From the NCBI GenBank assembly GCA_965205865.1, contig CBDBHR010000024.1:96001-160000 (forward strand): 64,000 nt of DNA, read 5' to 3'. This DNA comes from a bacterium. GTDB taxonomy: Bacteria > SAR324 > NAC60-12. Below the pieces are notes generated by a model that was given only the letters and a program-made list of their open reading frames with translations, was not told the origin of the DNA and ran no database searches. A program made the position numbers and the translations under genes. Shown one piece after another: positions 27,500 to 47,271 of the stretch (its first letter is position 1; the number at the start of each line of letters is the position of its first letter).

Positions 27500-28129
27500 A
27501 TGACTAACGACAAATACTGCATGTCTTTTACAACGGGCGGTCTGTTTCACCATGAGTCGCTGAATCTGGCAGTGCTCTATCTGGACATCGAGGACTGGAA
27601 TACCGTACGACAAAAGGTCATGGCTGAAAACCTTTTGCAGGCCCGGACACTGAACACCTCGAGGCGAGTTTGTCGCGAAATTATTTCCCGTCTGAAAACC
27701 CTCGACGCCGGTGAACTGGACTTGCTCGTGGCAAGCAATCCCCGGGAGCAGGGTTACCTCTTATGGCTCGCCGTCTGTCGTCGGTACAGGTTTATCGCTG
27801 ATTTCGCCGTCGAAGTCATGCGAGAGCGTTTCATCACTTTGAAAACCGATTTAAATTACGCGGACTTCGATGCTTTTTTCAACCGGAAATCGGAGTGGTA
27901 TGCTGAATTGGACCAACTCCGGTCAACAACCAGAAACAAGCTGCGGCAGGTGCTGTTCAAAATGCTCCGCGAAGCAGATCTCCTGACGGCAAACAACATG
28001 ATTAAGGCGACCATGCTCAGCCCCGGGCTTGTGGAGGTGATATCTCATGGCAACCGCCGGGATGTTTTTTTCTTCCCTGCTTTTGAATCGGCCTTTGTCT
28101 CGAACAAGAACAGGAAAATGGCAGAATGA
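27500..28129 (+). CDS. brxA: BREX protein BrxA (DUF1819)
   Basis: YCMSFTTGGL, NLLQART and KLRQVLFKMLREA motifs; operon context. Confidence 0.9.
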   Translation: MTNDKYCMSFTTGGLFHHESLNLAVLYLDIEDWNTVRQKVMAENLLQARTLNTSRRVCREIISRLKTLDAGELDLLVASNPREQGYLLWLAVCRRYRFIADFAVEVMRERFITLKTDLNYADFDAFFNRKSEWYAELDQLRSTTRNKLRQVLFKMLREADLLTANNMIKATMLSPGLVEVISHGNRRDVFFFPAFESAFVSNKNRKMAE

Positions 28130-28737
28130 AAACAGACATTGCAACAATGTCGCTGGCGGATAGGTTCGAGCATCTTTTCATTGTGATCTCATCACTGCGC
28201 TTTCGTCGGAAGCAAGGTCTCGGTAACGAAGTGCCGTTCTTCATTTGTCCCTTCAAACCGCAAGAGGCGGTTGAAATGGAGCGAAGCCAGCGCATTTTGA
28301 TCAACCGCTTGGAAAAAGCCGGTGTGTCAATCCTGGCGATCAACCTGTACAATCTTTCCATAAAAATCCTGCGAGACCGAGGTATTTGGGAACAGATTCT
28401 TGAAATGGAAAAAACAGTTTCCAAGGAGCAGTTCAAAGAGTTGCTGCAGGGTGTACTGGACCCGGAAGCACATCTTATACCGGCCATCGCGGACAAATTG
28501 GCAAGCACTGATTTCGAAGTTCTTTTTCTTTCCGGCGTTGGCGAAGCGTACCCCTGCATTCGCTCCCACAACGTATTGAGTAACCTGCAGAGTACTGCGA
28601 AAGAGAAACCGACCATCTTGTTTTTCCCGGGCGCCTATACTTACTCCAGGGAATCGGGAGCCTCGCTCGACATCTTCGGACGACTTCACGAAGACAGGTA
28701 TTACCGGGCGTTCAATATCTTTCACTGCGAAGTATAA
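28126..28737 (+). CDS. brxB: BREX protein BrxB (DUF1788)
   Basis: GLGNEVPFFI, IRSHNVL, FFPG.Y and YYRAFN motifs. Confidence 0.92.
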   Translation: MKTDIATMSLADRFEHLFIVISSLRFRRKQGLGNEVPFFICPFKPQEAVEMERSQRILINRLEKAGVSILAINLYNLSIKILRDRGIWEQILEMEKTVSKEQFKELLQGVLDPEAHLIPAIADKLASTDFEVLFLSGVGEAYPCIRSHNVLSNLQSTAKEKPTILFFPGAYTYSRESGASLDIFGRLHEDRYYRAFNIFHCEV

Positions 28738-28748
28738 ACAAGGAAAAC

Positions 28749-31006
28749 GTGATGACTCTCAAGACCATTTTCAATAAGCCGGTTGACCGTCCGATAGAAG
28801 GGGTCATCAAGGCCGATGATGCGGCGAGCCTGCATCTTGAAGTGGAAGAATACGTACTCACTAACGAAGTGGCAAAGTGTCTGGAAGCCTTTCTGCATGC
28901 CTACAACAATTATGCAGGGGCCAATGGCGTCTGGATATCCGGCTTTTTCGGTTCCGGCAAGTCGTATCTGCTGAAGATGTTGGCGCTGCTGCTGGAAAAC
29001 CGCCAGATCGACGGCGTCGCGGCATTCGACCTGTTCCTGCCCAAATGTGCTGATAACGAATTTCTTCGAGCCGATCTCGAGCGGGCAGTCGGCATCCCCG
29101 CCAAGAGTATTCTGTTCAATATCGATCAAAAAGCCGACATTATCAGCAAAACCCAGATCGACGCCTTGCTTGCTGTTTTCGTCAAGGTCTTTGACGATAT
29201 ATGCGGCTACTATGGTAAGCAGGGACACATCGCTCAGTTCGAACGAGACCTGGAAAGCCGGGGACTCTATACAGGGTTCAAGACCAACTACGAATCCATC
29301 GCGGGACGGACCTGGCAGGAAGGTCGCGAACAGGGGCTGCTGGAAACCGGCAATATTGCCAAAGCCTATGCGCAAACAACCGGTGACAACGAAACTCCAG
29401 CCATGGGCATACTCGAAAAGTACCGCAGTGAGTACCGGGTCTCCATCGAAGACTTTGCAGAGCAGGCGCATGCCTATATCGAAAAGCAGTCACCCGATTT
29501 CCGTCTGAATTTTTTTGTCGACGAGGTGGGCCAGTACATCGCCGGAAACGTCAAGCTCATGACCAATATGCAGACCATTGCCGAGAGTCTGGCCACCCGC
29601 TGCCGAGGCCGCGCCTGGGTCATGGTGACCGCTCAGGAGGATATGGAAATGGTCGTGGGTGATATGGGCAAACAGCAGGGTAACGACTTTTCCAAGATCC
29701 AGGCCCGGTTTGCCAACCGCATGAAATTGACCAGCGCTGATGTGGCGGAAGTGATTCAAGAACGCCTGCTGAAGAAGAATGATGCTGCTGAAGGACCACT
29801 GTCAGAAATCCATAAAACCCAAACGAACAACTTCAAGACCCTGTTCGACTTTGCGGATGGCTCCCAGACCTATCGCAACTTCCGGGACCAGGATCATTTT
29901 ATCCGGTTTTATCCGTTCATTCCTTATCAATTCTCGCTGTTCCAGTCTGCCATTCAGAACCTGTCGCTGCACGAAGCTTTCGAGGGTAAACACAGTTCCG
30001 TGGGTGAACGCTCCATGCTGGGCGTATTCCAGCAGGTTACCATTCAGATCTGCGACCATGAAATTGGCCAACTCGCCACCTTTGACCTGATGTTCGAGGG
30101 TATTCGGACTGCGCTGAAATCCGGCATTCAGCGGGCTATCATCCAGGCCGAAAACCATCTCGACAATCCCTTTGCTCTGCGTCTGCTGAAAACGTTGTTT
30201 CTGGTCAAATACGTGAAGGAGTTCAAAGCGACGCTCCGTAACCTTCGCATCCTGATGCTGGACGGCTTTGACCAGGATATTCCCAGTCTGAGCGAACAGG
30301 TTCAGGAGGCGCTTAATCTGCTGGAACAACAGACCTGTATACAGCGTAACGGTGATTCCTACGACTATCTCACCAACGAAGAGAAATACGTCGAGCAAGA
30401 GATCAAAAACACCGAGGTGGAAAATGCTGTTGTTGCTGACGAACTGGCAGAAATCGTATTCGACCATGTAATCAAACACAAAAAAATCCGTTGCGAAGGC
30501 CCGCCATACAACGGGCAGGATTATCACTATTCAAGGAAACTCGATGACCGTCTGCTTGGACGGGAACAGGAGCTTGCCATCCACGTTGTCAGCCCCTTCA
30601 ATGAGAATATCGATAACGAGCATAATTTACGGATGCATAGTCTGGGAAGGAATGAGTTGTTGGTGTTGATGCCGCCTGATGACCGTCTGGTGCGCGACCT
30701 ACTGACGTACAAGAGGACCGAGAAGTACATCCAACAGAATATTTCTATTACTCAGCAAGATACAGTCAAACGTATCCTGAGCCACAAGGGATTCTATAAT
30801 CGGCAACGCCATGGAGAGTTGCAGCAGCAGGTAAGCAATCTTCTGAGAAGTGCCGGATTGTTTGTGGCTGGCAGCAAAGTGGACATCGGCAACGGGGATG
30901 CGCAAACCCGTATCATTGACGGCTTTCAAGATCTCGTCACACGGGCCTACCCGAACCTGCAGATGCTACGCGGCATTGCCTACGTTGAAGATGATATCGA
31001 TAAATA
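28749..31006 (+). pseudogene. brxC: BREX P-loop ATPase BrxC, truncated by a transposon
   Basis: RPIEGVIKAD, WISGFFGSGKS and VDEVGQY motifs; native sequence ends after ~750 codons at the element end. Confidence 0.9.
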
Positions 31007-31040
31007 CATGACTTTCGGATATTTATAAATAAATTAGTGT

Positions 31041-32326
31041 TTATCCAATACAACTGAATTGCATTACCTTCCCATGTGGTTCCTGGATTTTCAGTGCATT
31101 TAACTTTTCGATTGCGCGATGCAGGTGCTTCATCATGATGGGATCCTGCGGATTGGACTGCAAGGTGATATTTCTGATCTCATCTGTTTCTTCGATAGTG
31201 GCAGACAGATGCAGAAGGCGATGAACGAGTCCGACTAAACTCAATGGTTCGCCACCGAGAAAGTTACGAATGAAGTAGGCATAAAGGTGGACCAGACTTG
31301 CTCGAAAGTACATGAGAATCTGATCCAACTCGACATCGACAGCATAATCAGTGTCTTTGCCTTGAAGGCGAAGCCACTCCCGTTGCATCTTCGAGAGCTT
31401 CTTGAATTCTTTTTGGTGGGCTTGTTCAATAGCCTTGATTGCTCTTTCATGACGCCTGATCTCCTGAGCACAACCTTGAAAGTCAGCGCGAATGGCAGGA
31501 GGTACGACCCGTTTCCCCTTGAGCAGTTTCGTTTTTGCGCGAAGCCGTCTCTCTTTCGGAATCAGTTTTACCATGGTCTTTTCATGAACGTGACGCTCTT
31601 CAATCGCAGCTTTGAGTTGCTCGTTGAGAGCGTTTATTTGCTGTGCCAGTTTTTCTTGTTTTTCGCGCTGGCGGGGATTGGCTACCTTTTTTCTGCCATA
31701 TCCCGCAACACGGCTTAGAGAGACCGTCGCCTTCTCATAGCGGTAAGTCAGCTCCTGAGAGGGCCATCGACGAAAATAGGAAAAGACGATCTCGCTCGCA
31801 TCCACGGTGGCCTTAGGAAGGCTGGTCAGCAAAACCGTTTTGCGTCCGTGATCCCACTCGATTATGATCGCGCGCGTGGCGATGAGATAACCCTTTTCTT
31901 GCGAGTCCTCAAGCTCGATCTCGAGATCTCTCAACGTCGCCTTACCGTAGCGATAGCGCATTGGGTAACTGCGACTGCGCACACGACGATCGTTCCATTG
32001 ATTGTCATCCAAGGTGGTGATGTAGTGGAAGGTGTCCTGAGCGGCGAAGGCTCGCAGAGTTTTCACGCTGTTGTTGGCGCCATCCATGACGATGGCTCTG
32101 AAAACTCGTGCTTTTGATCGAGGGACATCCTCAATGACCTCCTCGATCTTCTCGAAGAGGCTCAGAATGTGTTCTCCCGTTGGCCCATGCCCGGAATAAT
32201 TCTCGAAGTAGACCGGATGAGCGAGACCATCATAGATGAAAACTTGCTCTATGCATCCCATCACACGCCCGAGCATGGTGACCTTATTCTTCTTGACGCG
32301 CTTTGATGAGAAGAGCGCTTTTGTAT
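31041..32326 (-). pseudogene. Outer element transposase, C-terminal part
   Basis: NTKALFSSKR..KNKVTMLGRVMGCIEQV; collinear with the second half of 32442-34685. Confidence 0.88.
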
Positions 32327-32328
32327 TA

Positions 32329-34730
32329 CATGACTTTCGGCTAAATAAATATTAGCGAAATTTAAGTGTCATTTTTCTTAACTTCTCGATATAATCGCCG
32401 TATGCCAGGTGAAATAAAACCTTAAGCCCAAGGCGATTTCGTTGAGAACTATCAAAAAAGAAAAAGAAAGACTAGCAGAAATTCTTAAACTCTTTAAAAA
32501 GGTTGAAGAGTCAGTTCTCTCTGTGAAAGAATATTTTCAAAACCACCAAACTCCTATCAGTATGAGGCAGTATAGTCGCTTAAAGAAACGCTATACGCAG
32601 CAAGGCGTAGCTGGTCTTGCCGATCAGCGTCAGGTCGGTAACGCACGAAAAATTAAACCCGACGAGATCAGTTTGGTTCATGGAACCTTGGCCTATAATC
32701 GCAACCTAACGTCCCAATCATTACAAGATGAATTGCAAAATCAATGGGGAATTACGGTAGGCCAACGTCGTATTGAGCAAATCCGACAAGAGTTTAATTT
32801 AACGCGCATTAAGTCACAAACGATTCAGCAGGAAACACTCCCGTTTGCCGGTATTGAAATTTTTTCAGCCTTAGCGCAATATGTTGGTCTTCTCGAGCAT
32901 TGGAATATTACGATTCAACAACGTTTACAACAAGTCCAAGAAACGCCATCGCCAAAAGCCAATAAAGGCGGAGATCATATCCGAGCCCGTCATCGTGATG
33001 GCACCTTCTCTGCCCGCTACAATCGTCTGGCCAGCGTTCGTCATACCAAGTTTGCCTCGATCACCGATAAAGTCAAAGATAAAGATTTCAGTAGATTCAC
33101 CCTTTCTCAATTAAAAGCCGAGAATTTAAAGCGAAAAAATTTAGCCCTCTTGTTTTTACCTTTAGTCACCAATAACGGTGCCATGCGTCATGTGAATACC
33201 CCCTTAGGGAATGCTTTACGATACGCCTGTGGGTACAATTATAAAAATGCCACCCTGGACAAATACCTCAGAGAACTCAAGTATCTTCAAGTCTCGGCAG
33301 ACTTGATTAACTGCAACGCTCGGTTTTGGCATCAATTTTGGCAACAATATGATGCTCCGGATCACAAAGTGGCCTGTTATTATATCGATGGTAATGTTAA
33401 ACCTTTGTGGTCCTCCAAACGCTGCCGCAAAGGTAAAGTGACGATGATGGGCCGCGTGATGGGATGTATCGAACAAGTGGTGATCCATGATGGCCATGGC
33501 CGGCCACTTTATCTGCGAACCTTTTCTGGCCATGCGGACTTACGAGAAAATGCGCTGCGGACGATGGATGAATTGGACATCGTTTTAAATAAAAAACGAG
33601 AGTCCCGCGCTAAAGAATCACCTGGCAGCCGCGCATTGATCATTGATGGGGCGGGCAATGCTGTTCAAACACTGAGAGCTTTTTCAGAATCGGACTATCA
33701 TTATATTACCATTCTCGATACCAATCAGATAGTAGATCGCAAATTTAAGCATCTGAAAGCGCCGCAACGTTATCAGTACGGTGAAGCCTTCCTGATTGAT
33801 TGCCGCATCGAGTTAATGGACTCAAAAGAATCAGGCTATCTCTACGAGAGCCGCGCGCTGCGGGTTCAGTGGGATAATGGTAAAGAATGCTGTTTAGTCA
33901 CCAGTATCCCCTCAAACCTCTTTTATGCTTCAGAAGTGGTCAAGGCTTATTTTGATCGTTGGCCCTATTGCGAAAAACAATATGCCCTGATGAAGGCCGC
34001 GACCTGTTTTAGTCAAGTGGTGGGTTATGGGAAAAAACTTTTGCCGGATGAAAATACTTTAGAAAAAATCGAAAAACTTCAAACCGACTTGCGAAAACTG
34101 CGGCAGGAATTAAAAATTCCGCTTTCGAGAATTACAGTCGAGGAGAAGAAACTCCAGGATTTATTTGAGAAAGAACGTCAATTTAAAGAAAGAAGCACAA
34201 TTAACAAAAAAGGCCAACGGGATCAATCTCAACGAAATCAGGAAAATCTTGAATCTTGTCAGAAGGATATCCGAAGGATTCAACGTCAAATAAAGACGAT
34301 AGAAGAAGCCTTCAAAAAACAGTTTCAGACTCTACGGCAAAAGAGCAAAGAATTCGCGCGTATCCAGGGTAAACGGAAAGTTTACCATGTCGATGTTGAA
34401 CTCGACCAACTAATGACCAGTTTTCGACTAACGCTGGCAAATCTTCTCGTTTTTCTGGCAAAGGAAATTTTAGATCATACGCCCATAGAAATGAATACCT
34501 TGATCCAGTCCATCTTATTTTTATCAGGAAGAATTGAACATCTCCCGGATCGTCGAAAAATTGTCATCAACAAAAATGAAAAAGATCCTCAGTTTATGAA
34601 TAAATTACAGAAGGGCTTATCGAAGCTTAACGCCCTAAAAATCAGGTACTCCAGCGGGGTGGTTTACGAATTTGTCTTGAACTAATAGACATTTAAATTT
34701 CGTATATTTTTGATATAGCCGAAAGTCATG
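32329..34730 (+). mobile_element. Unclassified TA-flanked DDE element (inner copy, intact, 2402 bp)
   Basis: ~42-bp imperfect IRs starting CATGACTTTCGGCTA; TA outside both ends. Confidence 0.9.
32442..34685 (+). CDS. Large (747 aa) putative DDE transposase with N-terminal HTHs and coiled-coil insertion
   Basis: YYIDGN, IIDGAGN and YFDRWPYCE motifs; fills the element between the IRs; TTG start. Confidence 0.85.
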   Translation: MRTIKKEKERLAEILKLFKKVEESVLSVKEYFQNHQTPISMRQYSRLKKRYTQQGVAGLADQRQVGNARKIKPDEISLVHGTLAYNRNLTSQSLQDELQNQWGITVGQRRIEQIRQEFNLTRIKSQTIQQETLPFAGIEIFSALAQYVGLLEHWNITIQQRLQQVQETPSPKANKGGDHIRARHRDGTFSARYNRLASVRHTKFASITDKVKDKDFSRFTLSQLKAENLKRKNLALLFLPLVTNNGAMRHVNTPLGNALRYACGYNYKNATLDKYLRELKYLQVSADLINCNARFWHQFWQQYDAPDHKVACYYIDGNVKPLWSSKRCRKGKVTMMGRVMGCIEQVVIHDGHGRPLYLRTFSGHADLRENALRTMDELDIVLNKKRESRAKESPGSRALIIDGAGNAVQTLRAFSESDYHYITILDTNQIVDRKFKHLKAPQRYQYGEAFLIDCRIELMDSKESGYLYESRALRVQWDNGKECCLVTSIPSNLFYASEVVKAYFDRWPYCEKQYALMKAATCFSQVVGYGKKLLPDENTLEKIEKLQTDLRKLRQELKIPLSRITVEEKKLQDLFEKERQFKERSTINKKGQRDQSQRNQENLESCQKDIRRIQRQIKTIEEAFKKQFQTLRQKSKEFARIQGKRKVYHVDVELDQLMTSFRLTLANLLVFLAKEILDHTPIEMNTLIQSILFLSGRIEHLPDRRKIVINKNEKDPQFMNKLQKGLSKLNALKIRYSSGVVYEFVLN

Positions 34731-34732
34731 TA

Positions 34733-35701
34733 ATAGGAGATGTAGTAGCAGAGCAGCGGGCCCATCATCGAATCACTGATAGTATCTCCCCAACACCGTT
34801 TCCAAAACTGCGCTAAATCTTGCAGCAGCAAGCTCGAAACCCCCAGGTACTTTAGTTCAGCGAGGTACTTGGTGATGGAACTCTGCTTGTAATTAAAGCC
34901 ACAAAAATGACCCAGGGTTTGCCCTTGAGCTGAGTTGACATTGCGAACCTGACCATTGTTACTCACCATCGGCAGAGACACAACGGCCATACTCTTTCGA
35001 GCAAGCGTCTCAGGATGATCTCGGATGATGTTCATAGAATGCCAGTTCTTGCTCTCACGTTTCTCGGACACCGATGCGAATCGAGCAGCCCTCACCTCAC
35101 TACGTCGGTTGTATCGCCCGGTGAATTTCCCGGCCTTGTCTTTTCCCTTCGTGTTCGCCTGGCCACGATTTGCCTCAAAGGCCTCTGTTTCCTTTAAGGC
35201 ATCAACCGCCCTGCAAATCACGTCGGCTGTTCTTTGCGGCCAACCCAAATGGTAAGCTAGCGCGACGATCAGTTCAAAGCCACCCAAAGCGTTCGAGTCC
35301 GTTCGTGGTGCTTTGACGAGCTTTGCTGGCCTGCCAACCTTCCGTTTTAGCTTCGGGTCGATTCGCGCCAAAGCGCGGCCTGTCGCAGAGACACTGAGGT
35401 CGCAACTGAATTCCTCCATGAGCGCTTGCTGCAACCACTCCAGCGCAACATCAGGGTTTTGTTTGATGCATCCTCTCAAGAAAGATTCTTGCTCCAGCGT
35501 TATTTTACGATTGCCCCCTCTCTTGCGCTGCTCCTTCAGGCCCGCTAGCCCGGACTCTCGCAATTGTCGTCTGTAATTGTAGTACTGCACGCGACTGAAA
35601 GGGACAGCTTTCCTCTCAAAGAATTCTGAAAGGGACAGCTTTGTTGTCTCTATCTGCTCAACCCACTTGACGATGGATGCAATTCTCTCTGTGTCGTTCA
35701 T
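34733..35701 (-). pseudogene. Outer element transposase, N-terminal part
   Basis: Collinear with the N-terminal half of the 747-aa protein up to LLCYYI. Confidence 0.88.
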
Positions 35702-35829
35702 ATACCAGTAAGATCTACGAGTTAGTTTGCAATCTCACTGGTATTCTACACCTATTAATTATAAACGCAAATTATTTTCCTTATATCCGAAAGTCATGTA
35801 TTAGTAAAATTGTATTTTTCTGCCAGACA

Positions 35830-36481
35830 CTATCTACATTATGTCTTAGACTTGTGGTTTGAAAAGGTCGTGAAACCCCGAATGAGGGGGGAAGCTTACC
35901 TGATACGCTATATTTATGATTTCGTTGTGTGTTTCCAATATCGTTCGGACGCTCTACGCTTCCATGACGTCTTACAGAAACGGTTAAGGAAATTTTCACT
36001 GGAACCAGAACCTCAGAAAACCCGATTAGTCGAGTTTGGTCGGTTTTCAGACCACCATGCAAAACGGAAAGGGAAGCGGATGGAAACCATTTACTTCCTG
36101 GGGTTTACTCATTACTGTACACGTCATAAAGGGAACTTTATGGTAGGGCGTAAAACAGAAAAGAGTCGCTTAAGGCGGAGTCATTCCAAACTCCACCAAT
36201 TGATGCGCAAAAAGAGGCACGATTCATTGGAAGAACAGGCCAAGGCCATTAATCGAAATCTGCGAGGCCATTACGCTTACTATGGTCTGGGTGGAAATAA
36301 AGTTGCTCTATATCAGCTTTACAATGACACCAAACGATACTGGCGTAAGATGCTTTCCAGTCGGAGTCAGAAGAGTTATGTGACTTGGGAAAAGGTTGAC
36401 AAGATTCAAGCCTTATTTCCGATACAGCGACCTAAACTTATCTTGCCCTATGAGGCAATGAAAGCACGCGCTGTGATGTGA
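35830..36481 (+). pseudogene. ltrA: Group II intron RT/maturase, C-terminal fragment
   Basis: YLHYVLDLWF, IRYIYDF (degenerate YxDD), FLGFTHY and LRGHYAYY motifs. Confidence 0.85.
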
Positions 36482-36759: not shown

Positions 36760-37107
36760 TCAATAATTTTGCTTCAAGACTGGGCCTAACAAAGACAACG
36801 CAAGAAAAGGAGTATCTTTCTCATCAATATCCTTGCATAGCTCATACGCTGTTTGAACAACAGGACTGGGAATCAATTGCTCATTAACGAAAGAGATATG
36901 AGAAAGAAGGGATTGAAGGGAAGTTAAAATCTCTTCTTCAGCCAATTTAGAAAACTGTTCGATTCGAGGACGATGTTTGAATATTTCAACGAAGAGAAAA
37001 TTACAGGTATGGCACTCATATTGAGGATTGAAGAAGACAGTTTTACTTTTGTTTTCTGCACTCAACAATGCTGAAAAAAAGATATTGCTGTCAACTACGA
37101 TTTTCAT
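36760..37107 (-). CDS. PIN domain (VapC-like) toxin, probably 3' truncated
   Basis: IVVDSNIFFSAL and IDEKDTPFLAL motifs; the usual WTGD motif is missing. Confidence 0.8.
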   Translation of the reverse strand: MKIVVDSNIFFSALLSAENKSKTVFFNPQYECHTCNFLFVEIFKHRPRIEQFSKLAEEEILTSLQSLLSHISFVNEQLIPSPVVQTAYELCKDIDEKDTPFLALSLLGPVLKQNY

Positions 37108-37297
37108 TTAGCATTCTCTCTTTATTCTCATTCCACCAACTTGACTTGATTTCTTCTGACAATTGCCAAATATCTTCTTCTGTGGCTTGGCTTTTATTTG
37201 AGGTTTCCAGTAGAGATAAAAAGGAAAGAACGTCCTTATCTATTTTACCAATATCAAATTCAACCCTGATTTTGCCATTTTCAATGGATGTTTGCAT
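37091..37297 (-). CDS. Putative antitoxin upstream of PIN toxin
   Basis: 68 aa, GAGGAGG RBS, overlaps the PIN gene start. Confidence 0.65.
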   Translation of the reverse strand: MQTSIENGKIRVEFDIGKIDKDVLSFLSLLETSNKSQATEEDIWQLSEEIKSSWWNENKERMLNENRS

Positions 37298-41341: not shown

Positions 41342-42520
41342 GTGTATTGCCTGTTTAATACATTGTATTATTGGTCATTTGGTAGACAGGTTTGAGTTTG
41401 TTGATAATTTCTTCGGCAGTTTTAGTCCAGACATAGGGTTTTGGGTTGCGATTGTGTGTCTCGATGTAACTATGGATGGCTTCGGTCAACTCGAGCACGC
41501 TTTTGAAGGCGCCTCGTCGAATCCGTTCTGCAGTGATCTTGCCAAAAAAGCGTTCCACCATGTTCAGCCATGAGGAGGAAGTAGGAATGAAATGCGGGTG
41601 AAATCGCGGGTGTTTTTTGAGCCATTCTTTCACCTTAAGATGTTTGTGGGTGGCGTAATTGTCCAGGATCAAGTGTACCTGCAGTTGCTTCGAGGTAGTC
41701 TTGTCAATAAGACGCAGGAAGCGCAGATACTCTTGGTGTCGGTGCCGTTTTTCACAGCGAGCGAGCACTTCCCCTGTCTGCGTATTCAAAGCAGTAAACA
41801 GACAGCAGGTGCCATGACGGATATAATCATGAGTTCTGGTGCCATTGCGCCCTGGTTTCAGTGGCAGACCTGGCTGGGTGCGATCGAGTGCCTGGATTTG
41901 TGATTTCTCATCGACGCTCAAGACCAGCGCTTTCTCAGGAGGATTCATGTACAAACCGATGACATCTTTCAGTTTCGCAGTGAAATGCTTATCATGCGAC
42001 AACTTAAATGTTTTTTCCAGATGAGGCTTGAGGCGATGGGCCTTCCATACTTTACCGACGGTTGTCTTGCCTACGCCAACTGCCTTGGCCATCGATCGCG
42101 TGCTCCAATGGGTACGGTCCTCAGGCTTCTCTTCAATGGTTTTCTTCACAATCTCCTCGATTTTATCCGCTCCATAAATGCGTGTCCTGCCAGGCCGCGG
42201 ATCATCATTGAGACCTGTTATTCCTTTTTCAACAAAGCGCCGTCGCCACTTTCCAACGGCATTACCGCTGGTTCCAAGCGTTTTGGCAATTTCTTGATTC
42301 TTAAGGCCATCAGCAGCCAACAGGATGATGCGCGCACGACGAGTGTCTCGCATCGCTCCGGTATGACGGCGTGCGGTTTTGCCCAATTCATCCCGTTCTT
42401 CCCGGGTCAGTTTTATACTTGGTGCTTTTCTCATGCTGTCTCCATATATGCAAAAAAAAGGACAGCTCGTAGTATAGCAAACCAAGGATTTTTTTACACA
42501 TTAATAAAAGAGCGACACAC
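41342..42520 (-). mobile_element. IS630-family element
   Basis: TA duplicated (41340-41341, 42521-42522) in a CTAG context; the host gene frame is restored on removal. Confidence 0.9.
41355..42434 (-). CDS. IS630 family transposase
   Basis: VDEKSQIQALDR, HLILDNY and SSWLNMVERFF motifs. Confidence 0.95.
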   Translation of the reverse strand: MRKAPSIKLTREERDELGKTARRHTGAMRDTRRARIILLAADGLKNQEIAKTLGTSGNAVGKWRRRFVEKGITGLNDDPRPGRTRIYGADKIEEIVKKTIEEKPEDRTHWSTRSMAKAVGVGKTTVGKVWKAHRLKPHLEKTFKLSHDKHFTAKLKDVIGLYMNPPEKALVLSVDEKSQIQALDRTQPGLPLKPGRNGTRTHDYIRHGTCCLFTALNTQTGEVLARCEKRHRHQEYLRFLRLIDKTTSKQLQVHLILDNYATHKHLKVKEWLKKHPRFHPHFIPTSSSWLNMVERFFGKITAERIRRGAFKSVLELTEAIHSYIETHNRNPKPYVWTKTAEEIINKLKPVYQMTNNTMY

Positions 42521-45947: not shown

Positions 45948-46808
45948 ACCCACGACGAAATCATCCGCATAGCGAATGATGTAAACTTCCCCCCGAGCTT
46001 CCCGCCTTCTCCATTGATTGACCCATAGATCTAAAACATAGTGCAGGTAGATATTTGAATAGATTGGAGAAACTACCGAACCTTGTGGTGTTCCGACCAC
46101 CGTTTCAGACCACTTCCCCTCTTCGATGACTCCGGCGCGCAACGTTTTCTCTACTAAACGCAGAATCCTTTTGTCGGAGATTCGATGCTCGATAAATTTC
46201 AGCATCCAATCATGCTGAATTGTGTCGAAAAATCCTTGAATATCCGCATCTAAGATGTAGCTCACTTTCCGTTGGGTAATGACCACATACAAAGCGTCTA
46301 AGGCTTGATGTTGGCTTCGTCCGGGTCGGAACCCGTAACTAAACCCAAGGAAATCCTCCTCATAGATCGATTCCAACGTCCAAACAAGGGCTTGTTGTAC
46401 GATCTTGTCTTCAAGTGCGGCTATTCCGATTGGCCTTTGACGGCCATCCGGTTTAGGAACCCACACTCGCAGAGAAGGGTGAGGACGATAACGTTCTTGG
46501 TGGATCCTCCCGTGCAGATCGTTAATCCGCTCCAGGAGATTTATGCCATACTCATTCCAGGTCTCCTCGTCCACTCCCGCCGCTGAGTTGCGATTGAGAT
46601 CAAAGTAAGCTCTCCGCAGTAAGTCAGGGTTGATGTGATGAAAGAGATTGTTGAATTGAAGATGGGGGTTCCTCTTCGCCCTTTGGCGCACCCTGCTTAA
46701 ACCGCTCTCTGATTTTACCGGCCTCTGAGTTCCGAACACAGGAGGGCAAGCAGAATTCCTCTCAGCCAAGTCCCTTTGCTCCACAGGCTCCGTTGATTTC
46801 CTTTGCAT
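45946..46808 (-). pseudogene. ltrA: Group II intron reverse transcriptase, N-terminal part
   Basis: FNNLFHHI, PKPDGRQRPIGI, SYGFRPGRS, GTPQG and RYADDFV motifs. Confidence 0.92.
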
Positions 46809-47248
46809 TGTTACTCTCTACAAATGATCTCATTGTTCGCCGCTTCATCGCTACTACGAACTTGTCCGACTTCCTGAAGACGTAGATATCGGGGTTATTT
46901 ATTAATTTTCCCGATCCGACTACCAATGGAATGTTGACAGTCGTCTTCAGGATCTCCCAGGTTCCGCTCAAGAAACTTCCACACATGCACCGGGTCTTCG
47001 ACTCCGCCAGGCTCGACCGGGACTCACGCTAACGCCTTCGGTTGATGTTGCCTTCCCCACCAGACTACAAGGTCAGCACCTGAAACTATGATTTCGGAGC
47101 TCAATACCGAGCCTATGTTCTCCCCTGTCAACGCTTAGCGCCTATCCTTGCGAATAACCACTCATGACTCGGGGACTCGGCGGGTCGTTACTGCCTTACC
47201 GAGTAAGAGACTTTCACTCTCTATTTCTTGCCAGCTTTCCTGGCGCAC
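45946..47248 (-). mobile_element. Group II intron, 5' part only
   Basis: Minus-strand start GTGCGCCAGG at 47248, structured leader, RT ORF truncated just after YADD. Confidence 0.85.
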
Positions 47249-47271
47249 AGCCTGACCCTCTTCCCTAAATT

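Follow-up and report, generated by a model that had tools for sequence, protein, structure and literature searches.

Positions 31007-35798 of the window, by which we mean the whole 64,000-nucleotide (nt) stretch that was analysed (C24:96001-160000, from a genome of 4.74 Mb in 30 contigs), hold two related insertion sequences (IS) of about 2.4 kb, one nested within the other. The best explanation, to which we assign a probability of about 0.75, is that they are two members of one autonomous IS lineage whose Asp-Asp-Glu (DDE) transposase has a Tn5-type core and whose target is the 5-bp sequence TAWTA. The lineage is best read as real, as recently active and, within the IS4/Tn5-like group, as a branch of family rank that is unclassified, a word that refers here to the Pfam and NCBIfam models and to source annotations only. 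That the two are autonomous DDE insertion sequences had been claimed in an earlier note, made from the letters of the window, and is supported by the present analysis.

Two nested elements and their transposase

The inner element (32329-34730, + strand) is 2402 bp long and carries a sole open reading frame (ORF) at 32442-34685, which encodes a transposase of 747 amino acids (aa) with a TTG start; a public collection lists an identical protein among its called genes (P0001). Its ends are set by inverted repeats (IRs) and by two genomic copies of at least 99.9% identity, and the element is skipped by the public-run contigs described below. The outer element (31007-35798, - strand) is a diverged relative, about 2387 bp long without its insert, and its transposase gene is broken by the inner element at the first catalytic Asp. 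The N-terminal part of the outer transposase (aa 1 to ~317) occupies 34739-35701, and its ORF (34682-35701) reads on into the inner element; the C-terminal part lies at 31041-32328, where the ORF as listed (31041-32276) takes an internal Met for its start and the open frame continues to the junction (436 aa, no stops). The two proteins are collinear, with 31% identity over 320 aa in the N half (E 5e-53) and 40% over 411 aa in the C half (E 1e-102).

All four ends read CATGACTTTCGG, with TA directly before each. The inner element is bounded by inverted copies of CATGACTTTCGGCTA, and its imperfect IRs of about 31-42 bp (left, 32329-32370, + strand; right, 34689-34730, - strand) include the pair 32324-32354 / 34705-34735 (I4), which is 87% complementary. 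The left IR contains a terminal block, CATGACTTTCGGCTAAAT, and a subterminal block, CGAAATTTAAGTG; the second conserved IR block, CGAAATTTAA(G/A)TGTC, is found about 27-42 nt inward from each inner end. The IRs of the outer element stand at the 5' end (35761-35798, - strand) and the 3' end (31007-31044, + strand) of its gene, and belong to the pair 31003-31044 / 35761-35802 (I2; 42 nt, 81%). Across 23 elements the family end consensus is CATGAsTATCGGCTAAAT ... GAAATTTAAATG; the IRs of the lineage are bipartite, roughly 40 bp long, and begin with CATGAsTwTCGG. The anatomy given in the earlier note, namely shared termini, imperfect IRs of about 40 bp, TA at all four junctions and nesting of two diverged, collinear elements, is confirmed by the ORFs, the IR pairs and the protein alignments, and the inner copy is intact as stated there, with one unbroken 747-aa ORF between both IRs.

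The N-terminal region of the transposase (~aa 1-125, 32442-32816) resembles the tandem helix-turn-helix (HTH) units of IS630-type enzymes, which the note had also remarked. Pfam HTH_32 matches the inner protein at aa 45-114 (E 4e-5, 24.5 bits, below the cut-off of 33.7) and the outer protein at 35.7 bits, above it. The IS630 model NF033545 matches the inner protein at aa 39-134 (E 2.3e-7); the two window proteins span E 2e-7 to 5e-8 and score 30.6 and 32.9 bits (cut-off 100), with only the HTH region of the profile covered (positions 24-124 of 299). A weaker match is made to the corresponding region of the IS481 model, and the whole-protein model places two three-helix units here (predicted local distance difference test, pLDDT, ~80). 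Judged by these matches, the N-terminus is an IS630/IS481-like HTH pair.

The catalytic core (aa 225-545, 33114-34076) is predicted to combine an RNase H-like fold with a beta insertion domain, as indicated by an AlphaFold2 (AF2) model, a structural match to Tn5 and invariant residues. The motifs YYIDGN, IIDGAGN and Y..RW...E that had been read from the translation are found at residues 313-318, 400-406 and 503-511 (Y503, R506-W507, E511), and the catalytic codons, with positions checked, are 33387-33389 (D316), 33645-33647 (D402) and 33972-33974 (E511), on the + strand. Among 60 diverse sequences, down to ~20% identity, D316, D402, E511, R506, W507, G353, G363 and G528 are invariant, and Y503 and P508 are conserved in 59. 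The same sequences have the spacing D(76-86)D(105-150)E, the D402-E511 gap of the inner protein being 108 residues, and share the signature Y-x2-R-W-P-x-Q-E-x2-F-[R/K], that is Y(2)R(4)E(3)R, in which the R(4)E spacing is free of gap columns and invariant in 60/60. Lys occupies E+7 in 20/60 (K or R in 30/60), while R or K occupies E+4 in 47/60. The long coiled coil expected beyond the last motif corresponds to a coiled-coil-like helical hairpin (~aa 537-641, 34050-34364, + strand), modelled as long helices (pLDDT 85-90), and the family profile matches tropomyosin and other coiled coils there. A conserved C-terminal domain (~aa 646-747, 34377-34682, + strand), whose role as proposed below is conjectural, contains a VDVELDQL motif with D651 conserved in 59/60 and D655 in 57/60 sequences.

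The whole-protein model is poor (pLDDT 61.5); Tn5 was nevertheless already its top-ranked match. An AF2 model of the core (71-sequence alignment) reached a pLDDT of 85.8 and a predicted template modelling score (pTM) of 0.80. Its elements are ordered beta1-beta2-beta3-alpha-beta4-alpha-beta5, a three-stranded beta insertion and the Glu helix, where beta1 contains D316, D402 falls where beta4 ends, and the Glu helix bears E511. With this core, Foldseek ranked the Tn5 transposase first (E 3e-8, TMq 0.46) and piggyBac next (5e-7), with Mos1 far lower (7.7e-4, TMq 0.22). VIA structural alignment, an independent aligner, gave a Z score of 15.7 for Tn5 over 273 residues (model 1-308 on Tn5 23-347), and 10.6 for piggyBac, 8.8 for piggyBat, 5.8 for ISCth4 and 4.4-4.6 for Mos1. 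The predicted core fold is Tn5/piggyBac-like, not mariner-like, and its Tn5-like reading is well supported by the model. The structure and profile comparison that the earlier note had proposed has yielded a predicted core of Tn5 type, which does not support the link to IS630/Tc1.

Relatives and family status

Clustered at 50% identity, the protein relatives form 574 clusters at E <= 1e-3; a threshold of E <= 1e-10 leaves 308 of them, and one of E <= 1e-30 leaves 97. Full-length family members are 730-819 aa long, down to ~20% identity, and their elements measure 2327-2454 bp; most close relatives lie on metagenome contigs of 2.3-3 kb, as expected of collapsed repeats. Named hosts include metagenome-assembled genomes of Omnitrophota, Ca. 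Scalindua rubra, Dehalococcoidia and other Chloroflexota, KSB1 and Balneolales, and further Ca. Thiomargarita nelsonii, Deltaproteobacteria, Thermodesulfobacteriota and the archaeal Ca. Altarchaeum; the distribution includes Planctomycetota and giant sulfur bacteria. In their source annotations the relatives are a "transposase" (JGI), a "hypothetical protein" or a "helix-turn-helix domain-containing protein" (NCBI), and no member is named after an IS family. Annotation pipelines name transposases by family models; as this lineage is called "hypothetical" or "HTH domain protein", its insertions go uncounted.

When the window proteins were compared with Pfam and NCBIfam, no transposase-core model matched at E <= 1, and the only matches were to the N-terminal HTH. 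This holds for PF01609 (DDE_Tnp_1), which 5 of 19 distant members match at 17.5-27.7 bits (3 above the 23-bit cut-off), and for NF033592 and NF033591 (cut-offs 115 and 152 bits), the former of which, the IS4 model, is matched weakly by 7 of 8 relatives tested (16-32 bits). The IS1634 model NF033559 scores 15-25 bits in 4 of these 8 relatives (cut-off 100), and weak matches to the IS1380 model are also seen among relatives. The ISH3 and IS701 models gave no match to the window proteins (E <= 1) or to the 8 relatives (E <= 0.1).

In a protein atlas, the neighbours of the window protein are clusters assigned to PF21804 ("Transposase_29"), 690-860 aa long with N-terminal HTH domains. An hhalign comparison of the family profile with a PF21804 protein from a same-phylum genome gave 95% probability (E 3.8e-8, 260 columns) and paired all three catalytic motifs (D1, vDGh; D2, fDrEG; and RW-sQEnyFR). 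The PF21804 model itself (gathering score 27 bits) matched neither the window protein at E <= 1 nor any of 19 relatives at E <= 0.01. The hhalign link denotes homology of the core and not membership, and as far as these profiles tell, PF21804 is the nearest described relative. A tblastn search of 72,556 plasmids returned no match, and literature searching found no description of such an element.

The lineage belongs neither to IS630 nor to PF21804, nor to IS4 in the form that the models describe. We give even odds to the reading that it is a so far uncatalogued IS family which, together with the PF21804 proteins, forms a separate deep branch of Tn5-like transposases. Such a family would be defined by bipartite CATGAsTwTCGG IRs, an IS630-type paired HTH, a 100-aa coiled-coil hairpin, a 5-bp duplication at TAWTA and a catalytic helix with an invariant RWPxQE that exceeds its IS4-type counterpart by one residue; it would be spread across uncultured, mostly anaerobic bacteria and archaea, and still be active. 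The candidate new family announced in the earlier note thus stands in that no Pfam or NCBIfam core model reaches its cut-off with the window proteins, and its status as new is plausible, slightly favoured in our judgement, and unproven. The label "chimeric" was overstated, since N-termini of the HTH_32 type are found on several DDE families.

The elements might instead already be catalogued, as a divergent ISfinder family or orphan group (IS4, ISH3, IS1634, IS701 or ISNCY), with the missing model being a gap of Pfam and NCBIfam alone, which we regard as possible, if rather unlikely. The weak matches of relatives to the IS4, IS1634 and IS1380 models and the existence of archaeal members are in keeping with this, and so are several traits given in PMC2266710: a 5-bp duplication with an incomplete YREK motif is characteristic there of IS701, ISH3 and IS1634, of ISH3 especially, and CAT ends like those of the present lineage appear in its Table 1 for the IS231 and ISH8 subgroups. 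Against it stand the NCBIfam scores, which are far under their cut-offs (at most 32 against 115 for IS4, at most 25 against 100 for IS1634) and absent for ISH3 and IS701 in the searches just described, as well as the size of 2.4 kb and 730-819 aa, well beyond the 1.2-2.0 kb tabulated there for those families. The R(4)E spacing in 60/60 sequences, the source names and the outcome of the literature search point the same way.

Movement, the empty site and the target duplication

The inner element is present in three genomic copies of at least 99.9% identity: the copy in the window, a second at C29:386289-388690 (99.917% over 2402 nt) and a third at C1:8325-12483 (99.93-100%), which is split by a 1752-bp insert with a 5-bp overlap. 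These near-identical copies, with the 308 clusters of protein relatives, make the nesting more than a chance arrangement. The outer type occurs once in the genome. A search of 61 related genomes turned up full copies in a single one, the window's own; the same-genus genome G001 has a 61-residue fragment only.

The uninterrupted outer element was recovered from public runs. Contigs from three studies (runs X1, X9 and X2) join 32329 to 34739 with CGTC between them, that is, they carry the outer element without the inner one. On the - strand this junction is in frame (...CYYIDGNTKALFSS; in a longer reading, ...GPLLCYYIDGNTKALFSS) and the first catalytic Asp is intact (YYIDGN). In X9 a single 2370-bp contig represents the whole uninterrupted element, covering 31007-32329 and 34739-35781, and sequencing depth is ~82 for the outer and ~108 for the inner element, against ~16-17 for the flanks. 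The uninterrupted contigs and the X9 depth imply that both lineages are multi-copy elsewhere and that the nesting is an insertion polymorphism, so that the elements vary both in copy number and in presence or absence at the site. Two other joints in the public runs (32027>35013 and 32354>35798, between opposite strands, with sides of at most 31 letters) were discarded as cross-joins between similar IRs. Empty sites for the C29 and C1 copies were not recovered in relatives, the flanks of these copies being themselves other repeated elements; the brxC flank of the outer element had no match in G001, G008 or G004. Likewise, the flanks of the related locus L021 (genome G061) were not found in 25 relatives of G061, and no interrupted gene was readable across the insertion at L021, L059 or L076.

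On the + strand the empty site reads TTTTG-TATTA-CCGTC-GATG, and TATTA, the target 5-mer left of the inner element (32324-32328), is present once in the uninterrupted outer element. The filled site of the window reads TTTTG-TATTA-[inner]-TAATAGGA-GATG, a net gain of 3 nt, with 8 anomalous bases on the right (34731-34738), and the filled allele in X1 reads TATTA-[inner]-TAGTA-GCGAC-GATG, a net gain of exactly 5 nt; the 2 nt that a TA duplication would add are seen in neither. On the right side of the inner element, a stretch of 8-10 nt departs from the empty-site sequence, in one way in the window and in another in X1, and in both alleles the Asp-Gly-Asn codons of the outer gene are destroyed. 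All three changes in the X1 allele, which is represented by one contig at a depth of 21, fall at second codon positions. Error-prone repair of the junction, a second event at the site and, in X1, a contig artefact are possible sources of the scrambling, and two differently scrambled stretches of 8-10 nt may point to error-prone target joining or repair in this family. An attempt to restore the outer frame by cutting out the inner element with 2 or 5 bases failed both ways, a failure that is explained by the comparison with the uninterrupted form in the public runs.

This failure could also be taken to mean that the outer copy was already a dead relic before the inner element arrived, in which case the nesting would tell nothing of outer activity: the window junction translates as CYYI-SYY-NTK, where relatives have CYYIDGNTK, and removing 2 or 5 bases brings back neither the frame nor the Asp. 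We consider this improbable, given that three runs contain the uninterrupted element with an intact YYIDGN, which in X9 is about 5 times as deeply covered as the flanks, that both outer halves in the window are without stops, and that the damage is limited to the 8-10 nt beside the insertion.

The length of the target duplication was examined in complete elements from the genome and 45 related loci, 22 of which have both ends with flanks and 21 of which are scorable, one flank holding an N. Perfect 5-bp direct repeats flank 10 of the 21, and direct repeats of 3, 4, 6, 7 or 8 bp flank none. Shuffling of the right flanks gave a mean of 5.4 perfect repeats (P(>=10) = 0.008), and a null model of symmetric target preference gave P = 0.012. 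TA stands next to both ends in 15 of the 22 complete elements; among single ends at other loci, 45/57 are TA-flanked and 35/57 have TAWTA. As any TAxTA 5-mer leaves both ends flanked by TA automatically, a TAWTA target explains the TA at almost every end. Two of the perfect repeats are non-palindromic, CAGTA/CAGTA (L021) and TTATA/TTATA (L063), and each leaves one end without an adjoining TA. Of the 10 pairs with TAWTA on both sides, 8 have the same central base when compared as direct repeats. A target duplication of 5 bp, not of the 2-bp TA, is therefore likely, and the adjoining TA probably marks the margin of TAWTA, a favoured target of 5 bp. The gathering of homologs suggested in the earlier note has in this way supplied an IR consensus (23 elements), a DDE triad (60 sequences) and a likely duplication length (21 elements).

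The TA duplication and the link to IS630/Tc1 that the same note had drawn from it are not supported by this comparison. An element related to IS630/Tc1-mariner, or a chimera, that targets and duplicates TA is very improbable: it would account for TA at 4/4 window ends, at 45/57 other ends and on both sides of 15/22 elements, for the match of the N-terminus to the HTH region of the IS630 model, and for weak profile matches, below significance (E 0.11-0.22), between the N-terminus and the DNA-binding domains of the Sleeping Beauty and SETMAR proteins, but it is opposed by the Z score of Tn5 (15.7 against 4.4-4.6 for Mos1), by the beta insertion domain and a D-to-E spacing of 105-150 aa where IS630/Tc1 enzymes have ~34-35 aa, by the CAGTA and TTATA repeats with one TA-less end, by the central-base agreement within TAWTA, and by filled sites that differ from the empty site by +5 (X1) and +3 nt (window), never by +2.

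For the preferred reading, a DDE lineage with a Tn5-type core and a 5-bp TAWTA target, we infer the chemistry and the exact stagger, and the parts played by the HTH and the coiled coil, as follows. The younger element has transposed into the transposase gene of its older relative. The paired N-terminal HTH would read the two IR blocks, and the coiled coil and the C-terminal domain would hold a synaptic dimer or multimer together. Movement is most likely cut-and-paste, as in Tn5, the two 3'-OH ends attacking phosphates of the TAWTA target 5 bp apart on the same face of the helix, an argument made for 5-bp families in section 14 of PMC2266710.

Several observations weigh against this reading. 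Perfect 5-bp repeats are lacking in 11 of the 21 elements (7 with one mismatch, 4 with two), and many elements lie on metagenome contigs of 2.4-3 kb, so that their two flanks may stem from different copies. The CAGTA example depends on L021, from a genome (G061) that is flagged unpublished. The window's own junction is unclean, with TAATAGGA in place of the TATTACCGTC that a clean 5-bp duplication would give, and the X1 allele has three substitutions within 10 nt, spaced 3 nt apart. The evidence for the fold is a predicted model with moderate TM-scores, and phmmer and profile searches of PDB sequences found only coiled-coil proteins, not Tn5. An R-to-E spacing of 4 instead of 3 means that the register of the catalytic helix may differ, and a Tn5-like hairpin step cannot be assumed. 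Finally, activity is inferred from sequence, and transposition itself was not directly observed.

Surroundings and comparison with known systems

To the left of the outer element, 27500-31006 is the remnant of a BREX defence locus, with brxA (27500-28129), brxB (28126-28737) and, after brxB, a brxC-like P-loop gene (28749-31028) whose frame runs into the outer IS end. One IS copy of the window consequently truncates a BREX defence gene, and the rest of the locus was apparently lost next to the insertion, since what follows the IS on its right is not brxC. There, the first 34-38 bases (35799-35836, TATTAGTAAAATTG...) recur at 89-100% identity in about 16 other genomic places and in 6 places of the same-genus genome; another mobile element probably ends here, and the outer IS abuts it. 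Of a group II intron reverse transcriptase/maturase, the ORF at 35810-36481 retains only the C-terminal portion (RVT_1 profile positions 145-204 and GIIM); it is a truncated intron remnant. Further on, a PIN_2 gene (36760-37107) overlaps an upstream 68-aa ORF (37091-37297, no Pfam match) on the - strand (36760-37297), an arrangement that suggests a toxin-antitoxin pair. An ordinary IS630-family transposase of 376 aa, with DDE_3 and HTH_23/28/29/32 domains, is encoded at 41355-42485 (- strand) and offers a contrast within the window.

Other repeats are associated with the inner element and its copies. A repeat of ~72-80 bp, from its 5' untranslated region and first 17 codons (element 82-165; window 32410-32493), is found at about 50 other places and at C29:10581-10900, C10:2110-2391 and C26:215349-215588, with 81-97% identity and often in tandem; runs X4 and X9 contain a matching 72-base joint that goes back on itself. 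In about 8 cases this repeat is fused both with element positions 1586-1682 and with the outermost 37 nt of the IS end; the four fused copies inspected have a common upstream flank, as if carried by another repeat. The 1752-bp insert in the third inner copy (C1:9770-11521) is another mobile element, with element positions 958-962 on both of its sides, which indicates a 5-bp duplication. The C29 copy is flanked by two copies of a ~560-720-bp repeat family, which has 14 genomic copies of 97-99% identity (~90% to those of a same-genus genome), among them C29:385689-386246 and C24:142702-143258 (window 46702-47258).

Among known systems, IS630/Tc1-mariner elements resemble the window lineage in their HTH_32-type paired HTH and in the TA at most ends, and differ from it in core fold, D-to-E spacing and, probably, duplication length. 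The closest sequence family found is PF21804, a 562-position model described as "Transposase protein" only, whose proteins, like those of the window family, are unclaimed by any NCBIfam IS-family model. Its proteins have RW-sQE with R(3)E spacing, where the window family has RWPxQE with a spacing of 4, and the two members examined are shorter (565-580 aa).

For IS4 proper, De Palmenaer, Siguier and Mahillon (2008, PMC2266710) give D(60-110)D(100-150)E, Y(2)R(3)E(6)K, one ORF and repeats of ~10 bp (one turn, 7-13 bp). As defined there, the window lineage shares the D-D-E spacing and the single ORF, and departs from IS4 in the Y(2)R(3)E(6)K motif and in the one-turn duplication, no repeat of 6-8 bp being found in 21 elements. 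The "emerging families" IS701, ISH3 and IS1634 are described in the same text as lacking the full YREK and having 4-6-bp repeats, ISH3 with Y(2)R(3)E(3)R, 5-bp repeats and CRGT ends, IS1634 with AT-rich repeats of 5-6 bp and C-----YT ends; the sizes given for IS4 and these families are 1.2-2.0 kb, except for the passenger-carrying IS231 elements. An incomplete YREK and repeats of about 5 bp are, on that account, a likeness in kind to the emerging families and no proof of membership: relative to ISH3, IS701 and IS1634 as described there, the element is larger (2.3-2.45 kb), the protein is 200-300 aa longer, R(4)E is invariant and the ends are others.

The best structural match to the predicted core is Tn5/IS50 of the IS4 family (PDB codes: 1MUH, 1MM8, 4DM0). 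Like Tn5, the window lineage has a single ORF, a predicted RNase H-like fold, a beta insertion domain that separates the second Asp from the Glu helix, a Y..R...E-type motif on that helix and D-D-E spacing inside the IS4 ranges. Unlike Tn5, to which no sequence-level match was found, it has an R-to-E spacing of 4 instead of 3, a Lys at E+7 in 20 of 60 sequences only, a protein that is larger by about 270 aa and bears a coiled-coil hairpin besides its N-terminus of HTH_32 type, ends in CATG instead of CTG, and a likely duplication of 5 instead of 9 bp. With an intact inner element and a known empty target site, the system is directly testable. It would represent a naturally occurring core of Tn5 type in which the register of the catalytic helix is shifted, the DNA-binding module is of another kind and a coiled coil is built in, and its probable half-turn (5 bp) stagger, set against the full turn (9 bp) of Tn5, would be useful for asking what sets stagger length and synapsis.

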